64,000 bases of DNA from Escherichia phage kvi. A model generated the notes under the pieces. It worked only from the letters and a program-made list of their open reading frames with translations, had not been told where the DNA came from and made no database searches. The position numbers and the translations under genes were made by a program. This document shows, piece after piece, positions 7,123 to 62,051 of this stretch (within the stretch, counting starts at the first letter, position 1; each line of letters opens with the position of its first letter). Where the stretch lies: sequence record MN850615.1. One strand, written 5' to 3'.

Positions 7123-7218
7123 TGATTTTGTTAGACATGTAGTATCCTCTTTTTAATTGCATAACGGAACTACAATTAAAATTATAACAAATATTTCACA
7201 ACTTTTATCACCCAAAAA

Positions 7219-7944
7219 TTACTTGAGTGTGTGGAATTGGCTGTGTTTAGTCTCTCGCACCTTGACAGACCCATCGCGTTTGATATAATAGATCAGTGAC
7301 TTGAGGGTGTCGTGTACATACGCGTGCGGGAAACGCTCTGGATACTTCTTCCAATCTGGAGTATTAACGATCCAGTCGAAAATCCACCACGGGCAGGAGT
7401 AGTAACCACGACCGCCACCGATCAAGCAAATGGTCGGACGGAAGCCAGTAAGATCGCAAAATGAATCAGTGTCATGTGCTGGGGAACGATGCTCTGCTTC
7501 GTTAGAGAAAATGTTGGCTACCGGAGATTCCACTTTAACTTCCGGTGCTTCTTCAACATCTGACTTAACTTCTTCGACCACTGGTTCAACTGCCGGAGAT
7601 TCTTCTTTTGTTTCTTCAATGACGATCTCAGGTTCTTTCATTGCTTCAACCAGAGACGGATCAACTTCGTCGAATACCACTTTATCATCTGCGGTGTCTG
7701 CTGCCAGAATAAGATCGTTAATACTGGTTCCTTCTGCCGGAGTTTCTTCTTCCATTTCGGAAGCCAGTTTAGTTAATTCTGTTTCTACGAACTCGATCAT
7801 GTTCTCTAGCGAGAGCGTCTTTTTGACCTTTATATCAAATTGTTTTGCGTAGTCCGCTAATTCTGTTTTAGCGGCTTTCTGTGATTCTTTGTCGTCGGAC
7901 GCCGCAATAGCGCGGAGTTCTTCGAAATATTCTTTATCAAACAT
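7219..7944 (-). CDS. inh: Acidic protein, Inh-like by position, with Hoc-like C-terminal motif
   Basis: 241 aa; Glu-rich linker; C-terminal PWWIFDWIV..YYIKRDG resembles Hoc capsid-binding motif; sits where T4 has inh. Confidence 0.45.
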   Translation of the reverse strand: MFDKEYFEELRAIAASDDKESQKAAKTELADYAKQFDIKVKKTLSLENMIEFVETELTKLASEMEEETPAEGTSINDLILAADTADDKVVFDEVDPSLVEAMKEPEIVIEETKEESPAVEPVVEEVKSDVEEAPEVKVESPVANIFSNEAEHRSPAHDTDSFCDLTGFRPTICLIGGGRGYYSCPWWIFDWIVNTPDWKKYPERFPHAYVHDTLKSLIYYIKRDGSVKVRETKHSQFHTLK

Positions 7945-23898: not shown

Positions 23899-24066
23899 TT
23901 ATTTGTTAATTTCTGGTGCGTTGCTAGGATAGTAACCTTCTTTAACACCCAGATATTTTGCAACCATTCCTACAATCTTCTGTGCTACTACAATGTCAAA
24001 TTTCAGATAATCTTCGCCGTGGGTTTCAATGATATATGCTTCACATGCTGCTTTAGTCTCGAACAT
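23899..24066 (-). CDS. Hypothetical 55-aa protein, paralog A
   Basis: MFETKAACEAYIIETHGEDYLKFDIVVAQK...; near-identical to 27180..27347. Confidence 0.45.
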   Translation of the reverse strand: MFETKAACEAYIIETHGEDYLKFDIVVAQKIVGMVAKYLGVKEGYYPSNAPEINK

Positions 24067-24938: not shown

Positions 24939-25196
24939 TTATGTCAATCGCCAGCACTTTAACGCGTGCTTTCTTACGACCTGGTTTTCTCGTAACCAGT
25001 GCTCATGACCGTGAACATTTTTATACTGCGATGCTTCTTCGAAGGTACGGATCGGACCTGGGTAATCAGCGTAAAGGATCTCTAGATCTTCGGTGATGTA
25101 AAAATATACATCATAATGGCTGTTCTCTAGTTTAAGCAGAGAGTTGCGAAATTGTGGTAAATTCTCGCGGGTAAATTCAACTACAAGATTTTTCAT
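24939..25196 (-). CDS. HxHW-family small protein, apparently frameshifted/truncated
   Basis: 85 aa from ATG 25196; family motif HGHEHW present but conserved VLAIDI tail is in another frame ending at 24889. Confidence 0.4.
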   Translation of the reverse strand: MKNLVVEFTRENLPQFRNSLLKLENSHYDVYFYITEDLEILYADYPGPIRTFEEASQYKNVHGHEHWLRENQVVRKHALKCWRLT

Positions 25197-25219
25197 AGTG
25201 ATATCCTCATTCAGATAGA

Positions 25220-25243
25220 TTAAAAGGGGGGCGTTAATCCCCC
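25220..25243 (-). terminator. Terminator-like hairpin
   Basis: GGGGG-CGTTAAT-CCCCC with A/T flanks. Confidence 0.4.
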
Positions 25244-25248
25244 ATATA

Positions 25249-25536
25249 TTAAAACAGTCCTTCCTGTACACCGTAGTAGAGTTCGTCGCTGATAATTTCA
25301 TTAATGCGACGGTGTGCATATTCCTGATTTGCGAAGTTGTCAGCAAGTTCTACTTTAGTTTCGCCGTCATGAGTCCATTTAGTGATAACTTTACCATCTG
25401 CAAATTTGAAGTTGAACTCTTTAGCTACTGCATCGCGTACCAGACGTGCGAACTTGTTGTTACGGATTGCATTGTCTGTTTCGTTTGCAGCGTGAGCAAA
25501 TTTGTTAACTTTCAGAGTGATAGTAATGTATGCCAT
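25249..25536 (-). CDS. Hypothetical protein (AKEFN family)
   Basis: 95 aa; RLVRDAVAKEFN; paralog of 28564..28875. Confidence 0.55.
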   Translation of the reverse strand: MAYITITLKVNKFAHAANETDNAIRNNKFARLVRDAVAKEFNFKFADGKVITKWTHDGETKVELADNFANQEYAHRRINEIISDELYYGVQEGLF

Positions 25537-25582
25537 AATTTTATTCTCCTAGTTAGAAAGTGTATCTCGTTTCGATGGGGAT

Positions 25583-25611
25583 ATTATGCTATATCCCCGA
25601 TCCGGTGTCAA
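25583..25611 (-). promoter_or_regulatory. Early promoter (TTGACA-17-CATAAT)
   Basis: rc of TGTCAA..ATTATG. Confidence 0.6.
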
Positions 25612-25617
25612 CACTTT

Positions 25618-25896
25618 TTATAAAATAATTTTTTGATATTTTTCTATGATGTTCGTGTAAGTCACATCAACCGCTAGCACCGTTGCTTCGAATCCACCGT
25701 TTAGCCAATGGCTATGATCATGATCGTGAAAGAAACCTAGACCAGTACGAAGACCTTCTTTATATTCTGCGCGTACATTCAGTTTGTCGTCGATAAACAG
25801 ATAAAACCATGAATTTTTACTAGGATTGATGATACAACCTTTCAGATTAGGGAGAATATCACGACTAAGAATAAACTTATCACCTACTTTGAACAT
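25618..25896 (-). CDS. HxHW-family small protein
   Basis: 92 aa; FHDHDHSHW..VLAVDV. Confidence 0.5.
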   Translation of the reverse strand: MFKVGDKFILSRDILPNLKGCIINPSKNSWFYLFIDDKLNVRAEYKEGLRTGLGFFHDHDHSHWLNGGFEATVLAVDVTYTNIIEKYQKIIL

Positions 25897-25900
25897 AATA

Positions 25901-26221
25901 TTAGTCCTCACTTATAAGGTCAAACCAATTGTTTTTCGCATAATGCTTAATGCGTGCTTGATCTGCTTCCGCTGGTGATAGATTCCATGCAACCACTACA
26001 ACTTCTGACGCATCGTCATCCGTTTCTGATACCCAATGATTGTGATTCATACAGTTATTTGCTATCGAGTGAGCAAATGATTTCATCACTGGAGACGTAT
26101 AATCATAGTAACGGATTTTCAGATTTTCATCAACGTACAAATAGATCGTATAAGGTTTATATTCAGTAACCAGTAACAGACAGTTACGCAATTCTGGGAA
26201 AATCTTTTTAGTTAATTTCAT
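25901..26221 (-). CDS. HxHW-family small protein
   Basis: 106 aa; NHNHW..VVVVAWN; N-terminus similar to 24939 member. Confidence 0.5.
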   Translation of the reverse strand: MKLTKKIFPELRNCLLLVTEYKPYTIYLYVDENLKIRYYDYTSPVMKSFAHSIANNCMNHNHWVSETDDDASEVVVVAWNLSPAEADQARIKHYAKNNWFDLISED

Positions 26222-26222
26222 T

Positions 26223-26441
26223 TTATAATCCTCGGTCGCGGCTATAGTACACGGTACGCCATACAATTTCATGTTTCGTGTCGCTCCAGCACACGATCTC
26301 ATTTACTCTTAAATCTTTGTTATCAACAAAAGATGAACATTGTGACGCTTCTTTCATCATTTTATATGCTGTTTTCTCATCAAATACAGCACAGATTTCT
26401 TTATACACTCGATAATCTTTGAATTGACTCTGGATACCCAT
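26223..26441 (-). CDS. Hypothetical protein (paralog pair with 26401..26658)
   Basis: 72 aa from ATG 26441; FKDYRVYKEI..KMMKEASQC. Confidence 0.45.
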   Translation of the reverse strand: MGIQSQFKDYRVYKEICAVFDEKTAYKMMKEASQCSSFVDNKDLRVNEIVCWSDTKHEIVWRTVYYSRDRGL

Positions 26442-26658
26442 AATTAACACCATTCCAACCAATTGTTTTTGAGAAAACGTTTATCCACTGTTGAGTGTAG
26501 CATGTTTCTTTCCATGATACAATACGAGTAGAATAATGGTTTTTGTTTCCAGAAAAGGACGGGCATTTTGATGCATCTTCCATCATCTTTTCGGCGAACT
26601 CTGGTGCGTATACTCGCAGGATCTGTTGATATGCTTTGTATTCTTTAAATTTGCTCAT
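26401..26658 (-). CDS. Hypothetical protein (paralog pair)
   Basis: 85 aa; FKEYKAYQQI..KMMEDASKC; 3' end overlaps next gene in another frame. Confidence 0.45.
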   Translation of the reverse strand: MSKFKEYKAYQQILRVYAPEFAEKMMEDASKCPSFSGNKNHYSTRIVSWKETCYTQQWINVFSKTIGWNGVNYGYPESIQRLSSV

Positions 26659-26923
26659 AATCATTCACTACCTTATCAGCTTCTTTTGTTGTTTTTACAT
26701 CAACTGCGATAACTCGTAAATGTTCGTCATGGTTCCACCAGTGGTCATGAATATCAGCTTGTGATTTATCACCAAAGGAATCACGAATATCATTTTTACA
26801 TTTATAGCTAATGTGACCTTCATAGTCAACATAAAGGTAATTATCGAAAATCGGCGTTTTTAAGATCATACCGAAAAATCTTTCTTTGTGTGTCTTATCC
26901 AGCGTTGCAGTAATTCGCATCAT
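26645..26923 (-). CDS. HxHW-family small protein
   Basis: 92 aa; IHDHWWNHDEHLRVIAVDV. Confidence 0.5.
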   Translation of the reverse strand: MMRITATLDKTHKERFFGMILKTPIFDNYLYVDYEGHISYKCKNDIRDSFGDKSQADIHDHWWNHDEHLRVIAVDVKTTKEADKVVNDYEQI

Positions 26924-26935
26924 AATATATTCCTC

Positions 26936-27115
26936 TTAGAAAGGGATGGTCATTTCTTGAGCTTGTACATTCTCGTTAGGATTAAACTTCATCCAACCGA
27001 TATTGTCTACCAGCATATGCACATTTTTATCATATCCTACGTGGGTAGTCAATACTGTATGTGCTTTACCTTCAATGATGAGTTCCATGTACTTCTGAAC
27101 TTCGATAGCTTTCAT
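26936..27115 (-). CDS. Hypothetical small protein (59 aa)
   Basis: Not in track; conserved leader; downstream of promoter at 27148. Confidence 0.4.
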   Translation of the reverse strand: MKAIEVQKYMELIIEGKAHTVLTTHVGYDKNVHMLVDNIGWMKFNPNENVQAQEMTIPF

Positions 27116-27147
27116 TTTGATTCTCCGTTTGTTGTCTTGATGGGAGT

Positions 27148-27176
27148 ATCTTACTACTCCCTTTAATCATTGTCAA
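27148..27176 (-). promoter_or_regulatory. Early promoter variant (TTGACA-17-TAAGAT) with hairpin over -10
   Basis: GGGAGTAGTAAGATACTCCC palindrome overlaps -10. Confidence 0.5.
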
Positions 27177-27179
27177 CTA

Positions 27180-27347
27180 TTATTTGTTAATTTCTGGTGC
27201 GTTGCTCGGATAGTAACCTTCTTTAACACCAAGATATTTTGCAACCATTCCGGTGATCTTCTGTGCTACTACGATATCGAATTTCAGGTAGTCTTCACCG
27301 TGGTTTGCTACAATGTACGCTTCGCATTCTGCTTTAGTCTGGAACAT
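27180..27347 (-). CDS. Hypothetical 55-aa protein, paralog B
   Basis: MFQTKAECEAYIVANHGEDYLKFDIVVAQK...; duplicate of 23899..24066. Confidence 0.45.
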   Translation of the reverse strand: MFQTKAECEAYIVANHGEDYLKFDIVVAQKITGMVAKYLGVKEGYYPSNAPEINK

Positions 27348-27381
27348 TTTTGATTCTCCTATATCTCGTTGGTATGTGTGC

Positions 27382-27410
27382 ATTATAGGGGATCGGTGAT
27401 CCCCTGTCAA
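27382..27410 (-). promoter_or_regulatory. Early promoter with palindromic spacer
   Basis: TTGACA-GGGGATCACCGATCCCC-TATAAT. Confidence 0.65.
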
Positions 27411-27415
27411 CAACT

Positions 27416-27709
27416 TTATAATGCTTTATATGCGTATTTCATAAATTTGTCTGCCACTTCATTGGCATGTTCAGATTCTACGCCTGATTCGAGAACAATA
27501 GCTAGGTCGGTTTCGTCATTCCCGCCGTACCAATGATTTGATGTTCGATTTTTTTCAATTGGAAATTGGTCACTTTTATCTGTGCGACAAAATACATCTA
27601 AATGCTCGTCGATGTAAAAGATCCAATCTTCATAAAGAATAACGGTATTAGAAAGATTTTTATTGCCTTCAACGAAAGGTTCGGCTACAAACAAATTAGT
27701 ATGTTCCAT
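27416..27709 (-). CDS. HxHW-family-like small protein
   Basis: 97 aa from ATG 27709; YIDEHLD..NHWYGG..LAIVLESGV; GAGGA SD. Confidence 0.45.
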   Translation of the reverse strand: MEHTNLFVAEPFVEGNKNLSNTVILYEDWIFYIDEHLDVFCRTDKSDQFPIEKNRTSNHWYGGNDETDLAIVLESGVESEHANEVADKFMKYAYKAL

Positions 27710-27725
27710 AGTATTTTCCTCAAAA

Positions 27726-27917
27726 TTATACAGCTTCGTAAACTTCCCAATGTCCAACACCAGCACGCTTAACGAAAAGGTTTTCTTTGATGTTATTCAT
27801 AAACGTCTGGATGGATTTAATGCGATTTGAAGGTTTCCAGTCTTCGTTGGCATTGCGTCGATACATCATAACATTACCAGTTCGCTTATATTCAGCAACC
27901 ATTTTAAGACCACACAT
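27726..27917 (-). CDS. Hypothetical protein
   Basis: 63 aa; GAGGA SD. Confidence 0.45.
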   Translation of the reverse strand: MCGLKMVAEYKRTGNVMMYRRNANEDWKPSNRIKSIQTFMNNIKENLFVKRAGVGHWEVYEAV

Positions 27918-27966
27918 AATATTATCCTCAATTTGTGGGAGAGTATTACCCCTCCCAATGATTGTT

Positions 27967-27995
27967 ATGTTATATCACACAAAATGGCGTGTCAA
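27967..27995 (-). promoter_or_regulatory. Putative early promoter (TTGACA-17-TAACAT)
   Basis: -35 lies within the 3' end of the upstream gene. Confidence 0.4.
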
Positions 27996-28295
27996 TGCTT
28001 CTTTTGCGGTTCCGCTAAGACTTTCGATCTCGCCTGGCATAACATCAACCGCCAGAACTTCTACAACATCCTCGGACCCTAACCAGTGAGTATGACCTTT
28101 GTAGAACTTAATAACCAGACTACCTTCCTCGTCCCATTTAACGCTATCGCTAGCCCACCACACATCACCGTCGATAAAGTTGATGTAAAGCACACTACGC
28201 CACATTGAATTAATTACTTTCAATACTGCGCCTTTCATCTCTTCCACGGTATGGTCTTCCATTTTGAAGACCTCACCTACCTGAACTTTTGCCAT
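27975..28295 (-). CDS. HxHW-family small protein
   Basis: 106 aa; GHTHWLGSEDVVEVLAVDV; GAGGTG SD. Confidence 0.5.
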   Translation of the reverse strand: MAKVQVGEVFKMEDHTVEEMKGAVLKVINSMWRSVLYINFIDGDVWWASDSVKWDEEGSLVIKFYKGHTHWLGSEDVVEVLAVDVMPGEIESLSGTAKEALTRHFV

Positions 28296-28312
28296 TTAGT
28301 CACCTCTCTTTA

Positions 28313-28492
28313 TTACATAACAATCACGCCAGCCGTTGAAAGTTGATGTTTCAACTGAGCATTTTCTGCTACCGTCAAATCAATGATTTCTTGTGACGCT
28401 GCAATCATATAGCCATTGGTGATATTGTTTTGCATCAGTTCAATGGTTTCTTCGTTGTAGCGGATTTTAGCGATGATTTCGTTGAAGTTCAT
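28313..28492 (-). CDS. Hypothetical small protein (59 aa)
   Basis: True ATG at 28492; track ORF is extended upstream through the promoter palindrome. Confidence 0.45.
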   Translation of the reverse strand: MNFNEIIAKIRYNEETIELMQNNITNGYMIAASQEIIDLTVAENAQLKHQLSTAGVIVM

Positions 28493-28526
28493 AATTGATT
28501 CTCCTAGTTCGTTTCGGTATGTGTGT

Positions 28527-28555
28527 AGTATAGGGGATCGGTGATCCCCTGTCAA
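28527..28555 (-). promoter_or_regulatory. Early promoter with palindromic spacer
   Basis: TTGACA-GGGGATCACCGATCCCC-TATACT. Confidence 0.6.
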
Positions 28556-28563
28556 CAACTTTT

Positions 28564-28875
28564 TTAAAGTTTTTCCATGATAACGGTCATAATTACATCT
28601 TCTGCGCGAGTGGTTAGATTATCAGCGTCAGCATGTGGGCGGTTGGTTGTTACAGAGATAACACCGTTGCGCACTGGTTTGATGTTGATATCAAGATGAT
28701 CCGCGAAACGTTCGCCAGTTACAGAATGAATTTTGGTGTTAAATTCTTTTGCCAGTGCCTTGCGAACTTCACGAATCAGGGTAGCGTTTTTCAGTTGGTT
28801 CTCCGCGCTCATGGTCTTCTGGGTGTTCATGGTTCCGTCGAAGTCAATCATTGGCAGCGTTACGATGTATTTCAT
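28564..28875 (-). CDS. Hypothetical protein (AKEFN family)
   Basis: 103 aa from ATG 28875; LIREVRKALAKEFN. Confidence 0.5.
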   Translation of the reverse strand: MKYIVTLPMIDFDGTMNTQKTMSAENQLKNATLIREVRKALAKEFNTKIHSVTGERFADHLDINIKPVRNGVISVTTNRPHADADNLTTRAEDVIMTVIMEKL

Positions 28876-28920
28876 TTTTGATTCTCCGTTTAAGAAAGTG
28901 TGTTTCGTTTTGATGTGTGT

Positions 28921-28949
28921 AGTATAGGGGATCACCGATCCCCTGTCAA
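28921..28949 (-). promoter_or_regulatory. Early promoter with palindromic spacer
   Basis: TTGACA-GGGGATCGGTGATCCCC-TATACT (loop inverted relative to 28527 copy). Confidence 0.6.
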
Positions 28950-28961
28950 CAACTTTTTGAA

Positions 28962-33038: not shown

Positions 33039-33916
33039 TAAAAGTCTCCGTAGTTAACCTGAAAACATTCTACACCAATTGAGCGGTACATGTCAACCAC
33101 TTGATCACGGTCATCTACTGCCAACACAACATGATAACGCGGTGCAATTTCAGAGAAGAAGATCTCTTTCTTCACTTCATGATCAGGACGACGATCATTA
33201 GTTTCACGTTGAAAGTGATCGCTAGGTTCAATACCCTGTTCACGCAGCCATTGCAGAGTATCTTCTTCGCAAACATCCTCACGCCCTGAGCATGTAATGA
33301 TACGATAACCATTATCACGATACAGTTTAAGCATTTCGATCACTTGCGGACGCGGTTTATCTTCTTTGACCTTTGTCCAGTCAAACGGATGACGACCGCC
33401 CTTATCCGCTAATGTTCCATCAATATCAAAGATCACTGCCTTCGGCAGCATGGTATTCGGTTTGTATACTTCTTGACCCATATATTCCTGCATCAGATAA
33501 AATTGGTTGCGCAAATGAGAAAGTGGGATTGCTTTCTCTCCGCGATAGAAATTACGTTTCTTTAGTGTCTCAAATGATTCATTGAACACTTGTTCAGTAT
33601 ACACCGCGTTAAATTCTTTTGCAAGTTCTTTGTAGAATACACGATGTTTTTCTTTCAGGTTAGTATCAGAGATAATGATACTTAATCCGCGTGATAGAGT
33701 CTCACGAGCAATCATTCTCTGAATAGACTCTACCAGCTTTTCTTTTTCCTTAGTATACTTGTATTTCAAATGTGAGTCAACGCCAAACAACATAAGACGA
33801 AGATCATCGCGATTCACATTACGATAATTACTAAACCGTTTACATGTTTCCATAGCCCATGTAGTTTTACCGGACCCAGAACAACCAACGGTTAAAATCA
33901 CTTCACATTTCGGCAT
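33038..33916 (-). CDS. pseT: Polynucleotide 5'-kinase / 3'-phosphatase
   Basis: 292 aa from ATG 33916 (AAGGAG SD); Walker A GCSGSGKTT; DxDGT phosphatase motif. Confidence 0.85.
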   Translation of the reverse strand: MPKCEVILTVGCSGSGKTTWAMETCKRFSNYRNVNRDDLRLMLFGVDSHLKYKYTKEKEKLVESIQRMIARETLSRGLSIIISDTNLKEKHRVFYKELAKEFNAVYTEQVFNESFETLKKRNFYRGEKAIPLSHLRNQFYLMQEYMGQEVYKPNTMLPKAVIFDIDGTLADKGGRHPFDWTKVKEDKPRPQVIEMLKLYRDNGYRIITCSGREDVCEEDTLQWLREQGIEPSDHFQRETNDRRPDHEVKKEIFFSEIAPRYHVVLAVDDRDQVVDMYRSIGVECFQVNYGDF

Positions 33917-34368
33917 TATTTCTCCTTCGGTTTGCACCGTTCCTCATTAAGTTCTTTTCGATAATAACACATGATCAACTTACTTTCAAGTGTATATCTC
34001 TTAATATCCGCAAGCCAGACTCTGAATTTTTGGGAGTCCTCCCACGACATAGAAACTCTAGGTTTACCGTCTATTGTATCCACTTTCAGGTCAATGTCAA
34101 CTTTTTCTATTGGTGCTGGTAGTGGTGGATGTAATTTCGGTTCCTGTGAATAATGGTCCATTGTACACGAAGAAAGCGCAAATACAATAGGCACAGCGAA
34201 GACATGGATTATGGAGGTCTGAAAATTCTTATGTGCTTTCTTAAACATCCAGTGTATCACGAAAATTGAAAACACCATCAGGATAATAATGCTTGCACCT
34301 ATCCCCAGATAATCAACCAGATTAAAATTGCTTATCTGCTCTTGTGTAGGCAATATTTCTATGCTCAT
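33916..34368 (-). CDS. Putative o-spanin (lipoprotein) / membrane protein
   Basis: Lipobox-like ALSSC then Pro-rich HPPLPAP; start uncertain (34368 with AAGGAGG SD, or internal ATG 34248). Confidence 0.45.
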   Translation of the reverse strand: MSIEILPTQEQISNFNLVDYLGIGASIIILMVFSIFVIHWMFKKAHKNFQTSIIHVFAVPIVFALSSCTMDHYSQEPKLHPPLPAPIEKVDIDLKVDTIDGKPRVSMSWEDSQKFRVWLADIKRYTLESKLIMCYYRKELNEERCKPKEK

Positions 34369-36818: not shown

Positions 36819-36968
36819 TTATGCAACCGCAAACATCAACATTTGAACATTCTTGGCTGTCTGGCTTTCAAAGTTCTGACATTCTTTGATAATGTCCTCT
36901 ACTTTCTCGCCGGAGATCTCCGCGTAAGTTTCGATTGCCATTTTCAGTACCGCGTCAAAGTTGTTCAT
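36819..36968 (-). CDS. Hypothetical small protein (49 aa)
   Basis: Not in track; conserved leader/SD. Confidence 0.4.
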   Translation of the reverse strand: MNNFDAVLKMAIETYAEISGEKVEDIIKECQNFESQTAKNVQMLMFAVA

Positions 36969-37006
36969 TTGATTCTCCTTAAAGTGTATTTCGTTTCGAT
37001 GGGGGT

Positions 37007-37035
37007 ATATTAATACCCCCGTTATTCAGTGTCAA
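37007..37035 (-). promoter_or_regulatory. Early promoter variant with hairpin over -10
   Basis: TTGACA then GGGGTATTAATATACCCCC palindrome. Confidence 0.45.
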
Positions 37036-37640: not shown

Positions 37641-38117
37641 TTAATCATGACCGTGATTTGCAATATCCGCTCGCGTCTTATCTTTGTGATTTCCTACGTC
37701 AAAGACACGATAACCATTTTCACGCAAAACTTTAATCACTTCTGGGTTATCCTCAAAGACTCCGACAACTTCATCTTTATCAAAGGATTTAATTACCTCT
37801 AATTTGATGTGATAGTCTTTACGGGAATCTGTACGGCCTCTCATAAAGATTTTATCAAAACACACCCCGTTAGAAATTAACCAATCAATTGTTTCCATGT
37901 AAGCATGTGAACTTCGTCCGGTGAGGATGTAAATCAAATGCCCGTTGTCGGAAAGAGCATTAATAACACGAATTACATCGTAAATGGGGGAATCTCCCCC
38001 ACATGCCTTGTTATATTCGATCCATGACTCGACTTTATCAAGATTTTCGGTTGGCATCTTTGCTAGTCGATGCGTTGGATCTGTGATCGTAAAATCTAAA
38101 TCGACAAAATATATCAT
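37641..38117 (-). CDS. HAD-superfamily phosphatase-like protein
   Basis: 158 aa; N-terminal FVDLDFTI (DxD motif), ILTGR. Confidence 0.45.
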   Translation of the reverse strand: MIYFVDLDFTITDPTHRLAKMPTENLDKVESWIEYNKACGGDSPIYDVIRVINALSDNGHLIYILTGRSSHAYMETIDWLISNGVCFDKIFMRGRTDSRKDYHIKLEVIKSFDKDEVVGVFEDNPEVIKVLRENGYRVFDVGNHKDKTRADIANHGHD

Positions 38118-39274
38118 AGATATTTCCCGAATCGGTTGTAGTCATCGTCTGTTAAATCGGTATTAACCTGAGATACCAGATACATGATCTCTACTTCTTG
38201 CGCCGCGTTTTGAACTTCGTCAGAGTTCAACCATTTACGCATCCACGGTAACGGATGACGACGAACACTAAACGGGCTTTTCAGTCCGGCAGCACGCATA
38301 CGGGAATCTGCCAGGTATTCTACATAGGTTTTCAGAATTTCCGGTGACAGGTTAGGAATTGCCCCCATTGCGAATAGGTGGTCTACCCATTCTTTTTCTT
38401 GCTCGACAACATCCAGAAAGATTTTCGTTGCTTCGCCTTCAAGTTCTTCCGCAATCTGTTTCCACTCATCACCATCAACCCCCGTTTGCCATTGACGAAT
38501 AATGTATTGTGTGCCTTTTAAGTGAAGTTGTTCATCACGCGCAATAAATTTCATGATCTTCGCGTTACCTTCCAGTAAACCACGTTCGGCAAAGCTGAAA
38601 GTACATGCAAAGGACACATAAAAACGAATTGCTTCCAGTGCATTGACGCAGTGTGCACACAGATAAATCGAAGCCATCAGATCTCGTTTTGTATCTTCAA
38701 AAAATCTTCTTGCATCATCTAATGCTGTCTGGTCGTCTCGTTCTTCCCAATAACGGAGATCTTCTTTTGCATTCTCATACTTACGAATCCAATAAAGAAC
38801 ATCATCATAATATTTCCCGATAGATTCCGCTCGCTTCATGATAGCAGGGTTATCGATGATCTGGTCGAACTCACTAGCCGGATCAATGAAACAGTTACGC
38901 ATAATGTGTGTATAGCTTCGGCTATGAATCGTTTCGCTGAATGTCCATGTTTGCAACCATGTATCGAGAGTTGGATCAGATACAATTGGACCAAATGCTG
39001 CGGACGGTGCGCGACCTTGAATAGAATCAAGTAATGTCTGATACTTCAAGTTTTCAGTAAAGAAACGCTTTTCAACGTCACCCATATTAAGATATTGAAT
39101 GCGGTCGGTTGCAAGTGAAATTTCTTCTGGACGCCAGAAAAATGACAATTGCTTTTCGATCAGTTCTTCAAATACTTGATGACGCTGAATATCATAGCGA
39201 GCTATACCCAACCCACTACCCAGAAACATCGGTTCGTTCATAATATCAACATGTTCGCGGTTAAATACGCTCAT
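38114..39274 (-). CDS. nrdB: Ribonucleotide reductase beta subunit
   Basis: 386 aa; di-iron motifs (CAHCVNALEAIRF, ARDEQLH). Confidence 0.95.
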   Translation of the reverse strand: MSVFNREHVDIMNEPMFLGSGLGIARYDIQRHQVFEELIEKQLSFFWRPEEISLATDRIQYLNMGDVEKRFFTENLKYQTLLDSIQGRAPSAAFGPIVSDPTLDTWLQTWTFSETIHSRSYTHIMRNCFIDPASEFDQIIDNPAIMKRAESIGKYYDDVLYWIRKYENAKEDLRYWEERDDQTALDDARRFFEDTKRDLMASIYLCAHCVNALEAIRFYVSFACTFSFAERGLLEGNAKIMKFIARDEQLHLKGTQYIIRQWQTGVDGDEWKQIAEELEGEATKIFLDVVEQEKEWVDHLFAMGAIPNLSPEILKTYVEYLADSRMRAAGLKSPFSVRRHPLPWMRKWLNSDEVQNAAQEVEIMYLVSQVNTDLTDDDYNRFGKYL

Positions 39275-61108: not shown

Positions 61109-61353
61109 TGGCGCATAGACGCGCCTGAATCGCATTTTGACGCTGTATGATGAAAACAGGTAGCGTACCAGTCATCGGCTTGTTTGTCTTCGTCAGAAAA
61201 CGCGTAATTGCGTTGTATGCCGTTTTCTACTTTGACCAGTGCAATAGCTGTTTCTGGAAGATCAATCAATCGGACAAAATCGCCATCTTCCCATTCTACA
61301 CGAGCAATATCATAACCCATCTCAAAATAAACAATCGCTTGCTCTAATCTCAT
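61105..61353 (-). CDS. Hypothetical protein
   Basis: 82 aa. Confidence 0.45.
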   Translation of the reverse strand: MRLEQAIVYFEMGYDIARVEWEDGDFVRLIDLPETAIALVKVENGIQRNYAFSDEDKQADDWYATCFHHTASKCDSGASMRQ

Positions 61354-61697
61354 TCTGGAAACTTCCCGTAAACATTCTCTGCCAACTTACGTGCATCGCT
61401 AATAATATCTTTCATGTGATGGTCGTATTGCTTTGCCATAATAAGAATACAATCAATGAAGAATGAATAACGTCTAGAATTTACTAAAAAGTTTTTACCT
61501 AGTGAATCAAACGGATCTGGATCATCAAGTTCGATAGATTCTCTAACTTTAGACAATTCTTTCATTACAAGGTTTACATCGTTTATAATATCTTTTGATT
61601 TATATGCGCCTTTCTTTAACAATATGGCGGTCAATTCTGACGCAGTTTCTTGAAATTCTTTCTGATAAGCTGAGTTTACATCATCGATATTAAACAT
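61350..61697 (-). CDS. Hypothetical protein, tandem paralog 1
   Basis: 115 aa; MFNIDD...ENVYGKFPE. Confidence 0.5.
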   Translation of the reverse strand: MFNIDDVNSAYQKEFQETASELTAILLKKGAYKSKDIINDVNLVMKELSKVRESIELDDPDPFDSLGKNFLVNSRRYSFFIDCILIMAKQYDHHMKDIISDARKLAENVYGKFPE

Positions 61698-61706
61698 AAT
61701 CGCCTC

Positions 61707-62039
61707 TCAAATATTGCCGTAAATGTTTTCAGTCATGGTTCTTGCTTCTTCCAGCATTTTGGTCATGCTCATGGTGTAGTTGTTATCTCGTACAGACTTA
61801 ATAACGACAAGCAAGGAATCTAGGAAAACTTTATATACTCTCCATTTTACGCTATTGTTGAATAGTTTTATATCTTCTACTTTATCGATCAGATAACCTA
61901 AAACAGATAGCGCCTCGTTCACTTCTTCCGTTACTTTACTGCCACTAAACCAGATGGGGTAAAGCTGGATTGACAGCGACCGTGCTGCCTCTTTCAGTTC
62001 GGTCGCCTTCCATGATTCATATTGATCAAAGTTAAACAT
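61707..62039 (-). CDS. Hypothetical protein, tandem paralog 2
   Basis: 110 aa; MFNFDQ...ENIYGNI. Confidence 0.5.
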   Translation of the reverse strand: MFNFDQYESWKATELKEAARSLSIQLYPIWFSGSKVTEEVNEALSVLGYLIDKVEDIKLFNNSVKWRVYKVFLDSLLVVIKSVRDNNYTMSMTKMLEEARTMTENIYGNI

Positions 62040-62051
62040 TATAGAATACCA

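Follow-up and report, generated by a model that had tools for sequence, protein, structure and literature searches.

Two diverged small genes behind early-type promoter cassettes in a Krischvirus genome probably belong to one phage-only paralog family

The DNA analysed here, a stretch of 64,000 nucleotides (nt) from Escherichia phage kvi (MN850615.1; hereafter the window), encodes two small open reading frames (ORFs), ORF1 and ORF2 (Table 1), which a preliminary description had paired on account of a common AKEFN motif. We conclude that they are very probably genuine, ancient and diverged paralogs of one tiny protein family confined to phages. In the N-terminal half this paralogy extends well past the motif, and over the full length a bridging homolog and the predicted fold support it. 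The window belongs to a Krischvirus (RB49-like) genome, the 4.1-kb region around the pair being 93-97.5% identical to RB49-like T4-type coliphages. Both ORFs lie within the accessory (hyperplastic) block beside the DNA ligase gene gp30; in RB49 coordinates the DNA methyltransferase and the DNA ligase gp30 flank this block, which comprises ~25 small 'hypothetical protein' genes on a single strand. The coordinates and gene structures first given for the two ORFs are correct: both have ATG starts, each after a GGAG Shine-Dalgarno (SD) sequence, and their annotated counterparts are RB49p198 and RB49p210. A longer, GTG-initiated ORF listed for ORF2 would extend into ORF2's own promoter.

The AKEFN motif is present in both proteins, but the extended form originally proposed, (L/I)(V/I)R(D/E)(A/V)..A.AKEFN, fits ORF2 (LIREVRKALAKEFN) and not ORF1, whose segment LVRDAVAKEFN is three residues shorter and hence out of register with it. 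Smith-Waterman, MAFFT and hidden Markov model (HMM) alignments instead agree on an ungapped R.VR.A.AKEFN.K for both ORFs. The Smith-Waterman alignment, which covers residues 1-44 of ORF1 and 1-48 of ORF2, scores 61 against 26.4 +/- 4.7 for shuffled sequences (z ~7), a value reached by 0 of 2000 shuffles. Pairwise alignment thus bears out a similarity that exceeds the motif, with the whole N-terminal half aligning from M.YI.TL onward (17/40 residues identical). By itself this direct resemblance would be suggestive rather than decisive.

The homology of the two ORFs is settled by a bridging sequence and by leave-one-out profiles. When both proteins were compared by tblastn with 50,697 phage genomes (2.3 Gb), they matched, beyond their Krischvirus orthologs, one and the same gene, present in single copy in Gaprivervirus phages (SP18gp146, VR25_147, VR26_141), ORF1 with an expect value (E) of 3e-7 and 43-45% identity over residues 9-92, and ORF2 with E 2e-5 and 32% identity over residues 1-95. 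In the joint alignment the SP18-type protein has an ORF2-like N-terminus (MKFI.N....DFDKTGN..SAEN) and an ORF1-like C-terminus (RRI..I.SDELYYGVQE). Among 1372 ORF fragments, an HMM built without any ORF2-type sequence recovers ORF2 (E 3.5e-9, residues 1-95) and one built without ORF1-type sequences recovers ORF1 (E 1.1e-15), with no other fragment under E 0.07 in either case. Profile-profile comparison with hhalign relates the ORF1 subfamily to the ORF2 subfamily with a probability of 82% (E 1e-5), and these to the SP18 type with 98.6% and 95.3%, respectively. Moreover, PHROGs (v4), which was built independently, groups all three subtypes in phrog_7474: ORF1 matches it at E 2.1e-42 (residues 1-95 on profile positions 1-100) and ORF2 at E 6.8e-43 (residues 1-103 on positions 1-95), and end-to-end matches to the 100-position profile, with E between 1e-30 and 2e-48, were obtained for ORF1, ORF2, SP18gp146 and P0002, a metagenomic protein of the ORF1 type. 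Profile searches therefore place both ORFs in one small protein family.

Since a chimeric SP18gp146 would break this transitive argument, we asked whether it might combine an ORF2-like N-terminal half with an ORF1-like C-terminal half. This was rejected: identity by halves and the informative sites reveal no significant mosaic (Fisher p 0.46). The C-terminal halves of ORF2 and SP18gp146 are collinear and ungapped, with z 3.5 (12 of 3000 shuffles).

Structure prediction points in the same direction. In the AlphaFold2 models, for which the predicted local distance difference test (pLDDT) and the predicted template modelling score (pTM) are given in Table 1, ORF1 and ORF2 have the same order of elements, beta1-alpha1-beta2-beta3-alpha2; these elements coincide with the alignment columns, and invariant columns fall in matching elements, namely K53/K66 in strand 2, V62/V75 in strand 3 and R77/R90 in helix 2. 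Beyond this common topology, the ORF1 model matches an independent model of RB49p210 from BFVD (Q7Y3J6) over 107 columns, with template modelling (TM) scores of 0.65/0.57, a Foldseek probability of 0.99 and rank 4 in the viral library. Two other BFVD entries, A0A5P8PI50 and A0A976SVE8 (87 aa), resemble ORF1 with TM scores of 0.67 and 0.52. On these predictions a member of the family would be a soluble single-domain protein of ~100 amino acids (aa) and ~11 kDa with a conserved core of strand 1 and the long helix 1, the latter ending in A-x-A-K-E-F; ORF2 would have diverged fastest in its C-terminal helix and would bear an expandable loop. Residues 50-59, an addition in ORF2, make up the loop that links helix 1 to strand 2, and pLDDT there is below 50. 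In RB49p210 (7213-7542 of locus L001) an in-frame 18-nt tandem duplication, so that ERFADH occurs twice, lies exactly in this helix 1-strand 2 loop.

Several observations weigh against the paralogy of ORF1 and ORF2. Composition-adjusted BLASTP of one against the other gave no alignment. As the pair had been picked from among many possible ORF pairs, an all-against-all comparison of the 388 ORF fragments in the window was run, and it puts the pair at E 7e-3 and rank 19, alongside spurious pairs that arise from translated promoter repeats. The C-terminal halves of ORF1 and ORF2 show no direct similarity (Smith-Waterman z -0.6; 9/49 identical), and in this half ORF2 is tied to SP18gp146 only at the z of 3.5 given above. 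Further, one 7-sequence alignment underlies both AlphaFold2 models, whose common topology therefore does not count as independent evidence. A similarity limited to the short motif is thus contradicted in the N-terminal half, and for the C-terminal half the argument comes only from the bridging sequence and the predicted fold.

These points bear most directly on the best-surviving alternative, which we nonetheless consider improbable: that only an N-terminal module of ~46 aa (strand 1 and helix 1) is common to the two proteins, their C-terminal halves being of different origin and joined to it in a mosaic by recombination at AKEF. The dissimilarity of the C-terminal halves would be expected under such a mosaic, as would the behaviour of HMMs built from ORF1-type or ORF2-type sequences only, which find each other just near residues 18-49; the phage is, moreover, known for shuffling of modules (PMC2839356). 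However, ORF2 aligns with SP18gp146 far beyond such a module, over residues 1-75 by hhalign (probability 95%) and over residues 1-95 by HMM, and its C-terminal half does so collinearly and without gaps. The absence of a mosaic signal at the informative sites, the same predicted strand-strand-helix order with the invariant K, V and R columns in matching elements, and the match of the independent RB49p210 model to the ORF1 model along its 107 columns likewise speak for common descent over the full length.

The pair had also been called another duplicated early gene. The two do form one family, but a traceable duplication did not emerge: repeat comparison in the window found no DNA similarity between the coding regions, and the proteins are only ~27-29% identical. 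That they are copies from a recent in-place duplication in the accessory block, still functionally redundant, is accordingly very hard to believe, even though the PeSL repeats described below offer a substrate for such events and the same block does hold recent duplicates, a near-identical pair of 55-aa genes at 23899-24066 and 27180-27347 (172 nt, 87% DNA identity). Each copy of the AKEFN pair is 93-100% conserved among the Krischvirus records that carry it, so the split of the two predates the radiation of the genus, and SP18gp146 is closer to each copy than the copies are to each other; a recent in-place duplication of ORF1/ORF2 is excluded. The weakest alternative, a chance motif between unrelated small ORFs chosen from many pairs, would accommodate the failed BLASTP alignment, the marginal E at window scale with spurious pairs scoring similarly and the out-of-register motif of ORF1, but is next to impossible to reconcile with a bridging SP18gp146 that is significant against both ORFs in the 2.3-Gb search (and whose 31-43% identity to either fits poorly with a recent artificial chimera), with the leave-one-out HMMs (E 3.5e-9 and 1e-15), with the single PHROGs family and with the agreement between the ORF1 and RB49p210 models.

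The single-copy Gaprivervirus type is closer to each Krischvirus copy than the two copies are to each other. With three branches this long no root can be assigned, and the sequences would fit an ancient duplication and two separate acquisitions through PeSL-mediated cassette exchange equally well. The second copy most plausibly arrived by cassette movement, having been either copied long ago within the genome or brought in from another phage.

The family is narrow. Members of phrog_7474 occur only in Krischvirus, as two subtypes, and in Gaprivervirus, as one subtype in single copy. When 1.84 billion cluster representatives were searched exhaustively with hmmsearch, only 4 clusters came back; together with word-indexed searches of 5.8 billion proteins, this yielded just the three subtypes and one truncated variant. 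Searches of Pfam and NCBIfam gave nothing credible, and a PDB profile search gave no match. No third copy was found in the window, and a divergent Krischvirus-like contig (L006) has the ORF1 type with no ORF2-type gene. Of the family residues, truncated SP18-type variants retain just the first 55-57, which cover strand 1, helix 1 and the next loop. One, an ORF of 67 aa, lies at a rearrangement junction of phage DCP80 (2501-2704 of locus L003); the other, the metagenomic protein P0006, has 84 aa and ends in an unrelated tail. SP18gp146 itself (2400-2880 of locus L002, Shigella phage SP18) is flanked by G/C stem-loops beside TGCTTTA sequences resembling a MotA box and not by PeSLs with TTGACA, and the gene may thus be under a different promoter class there.

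The region is matched by 58 Krischvirus records; of these, 56 contain ORF1 and 43 contain ORF2, whose reading frame is intact in all 43. ORF2 is 98-99% identical to its phi1 ortholog and 93% to that of RB49. The ratio of nonsynonymous to synonymous substitution rates (dN/dS) for ORF1 is 0.04 against RB49 and 0.10 against a metagenomic ortholog with 72% identity; across ORF1-type pairs and SP18gp146 versus VR25/VR26 it ranges over 0.04-0.14, and VR25 versus VR26 gives 0.29 (0.11-0.29 for the SP18 type overall). By this measure the ORF1 type is a real gene under purifying selection. The Krischvirus orthologs of ORF2 are too alike for such an estimate (1-3 synonymous and 1-4 nonsynonymous changes).

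That each ORF stands behind its own promoter cassette, as proposed at the outset, holds for both: each is preceded by a sigma-70 consensus promoter with a G/C stem-loop. Such cassettes are known from RB49 and phi1 as promoter-early stem-loops (PeSLs), in which an AT-rich tract and a sigma-70 early promoter are fused to a terminator/attenuator stem-loop (Arbiol, Comeau, Kutateladze, Adamia and Krisch 2010, PMC2839356; see also Comeau et al. 2014, PMC4122927). The ORF1 promoter (TTGACA-17-CATAAT, 25611->25583) has its -35 box at 25611-25606 and its -10 box, CATAAT, at 25588-25583, and the stem-loop GGGGATAT-agcata-ATATCCCC (25598-25577) overlaps the -10 box; in the ORF2 cassette the stem-loop GGGGATC-GGT-GATCCCC (28943-28927) lies inside the promoter spacer. 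Both placements are found among the described PeSL subclasses, and the cassettes belong to repeat families with at least 6 copies in 7 kb. The PeSL upstream of ORF2 corresponds to PeSL211/210 of RB49, whose stem-loop was assayed as a terminator and terminated as strongly as rrnB T1, and another related cassette, PeSL206/205, was shown to be active as a promoter (PMC2839356). Each gene would accordingly appear to be an autonomous early-type transcription unit of the accessory block, read by host sigma-70 RNA polymerase from its PeSL, the stem-loop of which, by analogy with the assayed one, may also terminate transcription arriving from upstream. A caveat is that early timing and promoter activity are derived for both cassettes from their sequences and from published reporters of sister cassettes.

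The sequence AAACGARAYACACTTTCT was considered as a paralog-specific 5' leader and rejected: a two-mismatch copy, AAACGAAATACACTTTAA (sharing AAACGARAYACACTTT), is found at 36979-36996 before an unrelated 49-aa ORF and, on this account, the leader common to ORF1 and ORF2 is a feature of a PeSL subclass and does not reflect co-duplication of leader and ORF. The PeSL at that site (36979-37035, minus strand) is of the ORF1 subclass, with its stem-loop over the -10 box and the leader ATCGAAACGAAATACACTTT, and precedes the ORF at 36819-36968. Directly past the stop codon of ORF1 the promoter scan detected no promoter hexamers at the hairpin listed in Table 1, and the ORF1-type gene of contig L006 has the same downstream terminator-hairpin arrangement.

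The two PeSLs flanking ORF2 lie 394 nt apart and so delimit a direct-repeat-bounded unit of that length. In phages JK32 (L019) and ELT3 (L020) exactly this PeSL-to-PeSL unit is absent and a single chimeric PeSL is kept (window 28490-28961). The remaining loop is that of the upstream copy (GGT) in JK32 and that of the downstream copy (ACC) in ELT3; as the two phages keep different loops, their crossover points differ. For the RB49 counterpart, ORFan210, inverse polymerase chain reaction has revealed minicircles, a ~400-bp monomer and a ~800-bp dimer, attributed to recombination between the flanking PeSLs (PMC2839356). Considered together, the published minicircles and the state of JK32 and ELT3 show that homologous recombination between the two flanking PeSLs deletes or inserts the ORF2 unit. 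This evidence for PeSL-mediated excision and insertion concerns ORF2 only and not ORF1.

Table 1. Features of the two loci in the window, with the secondary-structure elements of the predicted models (E, strand; H, helix; residue numbers)
Feature	Position	Strand	Description
ORF1	25249..25536	-	95 aa; ortholog of RB49p198; phrog_7474; predicted beta-alpha-beta-beta-alpha fold
ORF2	28564..28875	-	103 aa; ortholog of RB49p210 (ORFan210, Arbiol et al. 2010); phrog_7474; same predicted topology as ORF1
PeSL upstream of ORF1	25577..25623	-	AT-rich tract, promoter, stem-loop, then leader with GGAG SD; promoter scan 11/12; repeat family D1
Hairpin past ORF1 stop	25226..25243	-	GGGGG-attaacg-CCCCC(C) + T run; intrinsic-terminator-like
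PeSL upstream of ORF2	28921..28961	-	-35 TTGACA 28949-28944, -10 TATACT 28926-28921, 17-nt spacing
PeSL downstream of ORF2 (next gene's promoter)	28527..28562	-	TTGACA 28555-28550, GGGGATC-ACC-GATCCCC, TATACT 28532-28527, 17-nt spacing; repeat D2
ORF1 AlphaFold2 model	E4-9, H19-40, E50-55, E61-64, H71-91		pLDDT 80.8; pTM 0.74
ORF2 AlphaFold2 model	E2-8, H24-48, E62-68, E74-77, H84-102		pLDDT 72.3; pTM 0.66

The AKEFN pair is not the only set of related small genes in this genome. A larger small-protein family, presumably the first paralog family of the preliminary description, is recognised on the minus strand (window 24939-28295) by an H-x-H-W motif followed by a strand like '(V/I)(V/L)AVDV'; it comprises ORFs at 24939-25195 (approximate start), 25618-25911, 25901-26302, 26645-26923, 27975-28295 and perhaps 27416-27766, with pairwise E of 4e-11 to 4e-2. 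The 55-aa gene pair mentioned above (minus strand; proteins MFETKAACEAYI... and MFQTKAECEAYI...), each member behind a PeSL, is a recent duplication, unlike the AKEFN pair. Further candidate paralog pairs on the minus strand are 26223-26462 / 26401-26664, spotted by eye in the translations, and, from the all-against-all comparison, 61353-61706 / 61710-62051 (E 3e-8) and 33041-33943 / 37644-38141 (E 2e-9).

Much of the above is already on record: dozens of Krischvirus genomes carry annotations of both genes, one PHROG already unites them, and the cassettes and the mobility of ORF2 were published in 2010; the finding is correct but ordinary. What is added is, first, that 'ORFan210' is no orphan, having a paralog, ORF198, in the same genome and a single-copy relative in Gaprivervirus; Arbiol et al. 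(2010) treat ORF210 as an ORFan, and no mention of a relation to ORF198 was found in that paper (PMC2839356). Second, natural PeSL-to-PeSL deletions of exactly ORF2 exist in public genomes, and since such ORF2-minus phages are at hand the family is a tractable one for assigning function. It also offers a compact example of divergence among genes bounded by PeSLs.

As to that function, phrog_7474 carries no functional annotation, and a literature search for functional data on RB49p198, RB49p210, phrog_7474 or Krischvirus early genes yielded only the 2010 PeSL study (PMC2839356). The one lead comes from fold comparison. The best PDB match of the ORF1 model is DinI bound to the RecA filament (7ywa_A; Foldseek probability 0.97, E 0.03, TM 0.50/0.58), and DinI is at rank 2 for the ORF2 model (TM 0.35/0.41); the Foldseek E across both ORFs, 0.03-0.12, lies above significance. 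The DinI-like fold would point to RecA, UvsX or a comparable nucleoprotein filament as partner. Going by the models, the family could, as a tentative and rather doubtful reading, be a dispensable early accessory factor that binds another protein, possibly a recombinase filament; it counts against this reading that the fold match behind it is borderline (Foldseek E 0.03) and has no support from sequence. A more specific version, in which phrog_7474 proteins would have a DinI fold, be carried on PeSL cassettes and modulate the filaments of a recombinase, be it the host's RecA or the phage's UvsX, is a decidedly long shot. Were it true, a T4-type phage would use two diverged paralogs to adjust SOS signalling or recombination in early infection, and these might even be the 'helper' of PeSL cassette recombination on which Arbiol et al. 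speculated (PMC2839356).

The topology of DinI is beta-alpha-beta-beta-alpha. Compared with it (PDB 1GHH, 7YWA; PF06183; phrog_189), ORF1 and ORF2 are of the same size class and have the same predicted secondary-structure order, and, as read from the sequences, the C-terminal helix is net acidic in DinI and in the family proteins. They differ from DinI in lacking its strongly acidic C-terminus and the invariant W71 and W77: both proteins are near neutral overall and, when compared with the DinI alignment, have no tryptophan in the C-terminal helix. Profile comparison gave no Pfam match at E <= 10 and hhalign probabilities of 0.35% against DinI alone and 0.46% against a 9-member DinI alignment, and DinI maps to phrog_189, not to phrog_7474. 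Membership of the DinI family was rejected on the profile comparison and the missing signature tryptophans. The Tautomerase/MIF superfamily, with its beta-alpha-beta units, matches ORF1 about equally well (Foldseek TM 0.45-0.58), but its catalytic N-terminal proline (Pro1) is missing from proteins that start MAYIT (ORF1) and MKYIV (ORF2), and there is no sequence similarity.

Close parallels exist with the PeSL system of RB49 and phi1. Both ORFs are preceded by the published PeSL composite of an AT-rich tract, sigma-70 -35/-10 boxes and a G/C stem-loop. The 394 nt between the PeSLs of ORF2 match the published ~400-bp monomer of the ORFan210 minicircle, and the crossovers of JK32 and ELT3 fall at different places within the PeSL, as published for RB49 and phi1 (PMC2839356). 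ORF1 departs from the ORFan210 arrangement in having a PeSL upstream only, its downstream side (25243->25226) carrying a plain terminator hairpin, and, near-universal as it is in Krischvirus, it behaves as a more fixed gene than ORF2 / ORFan210.

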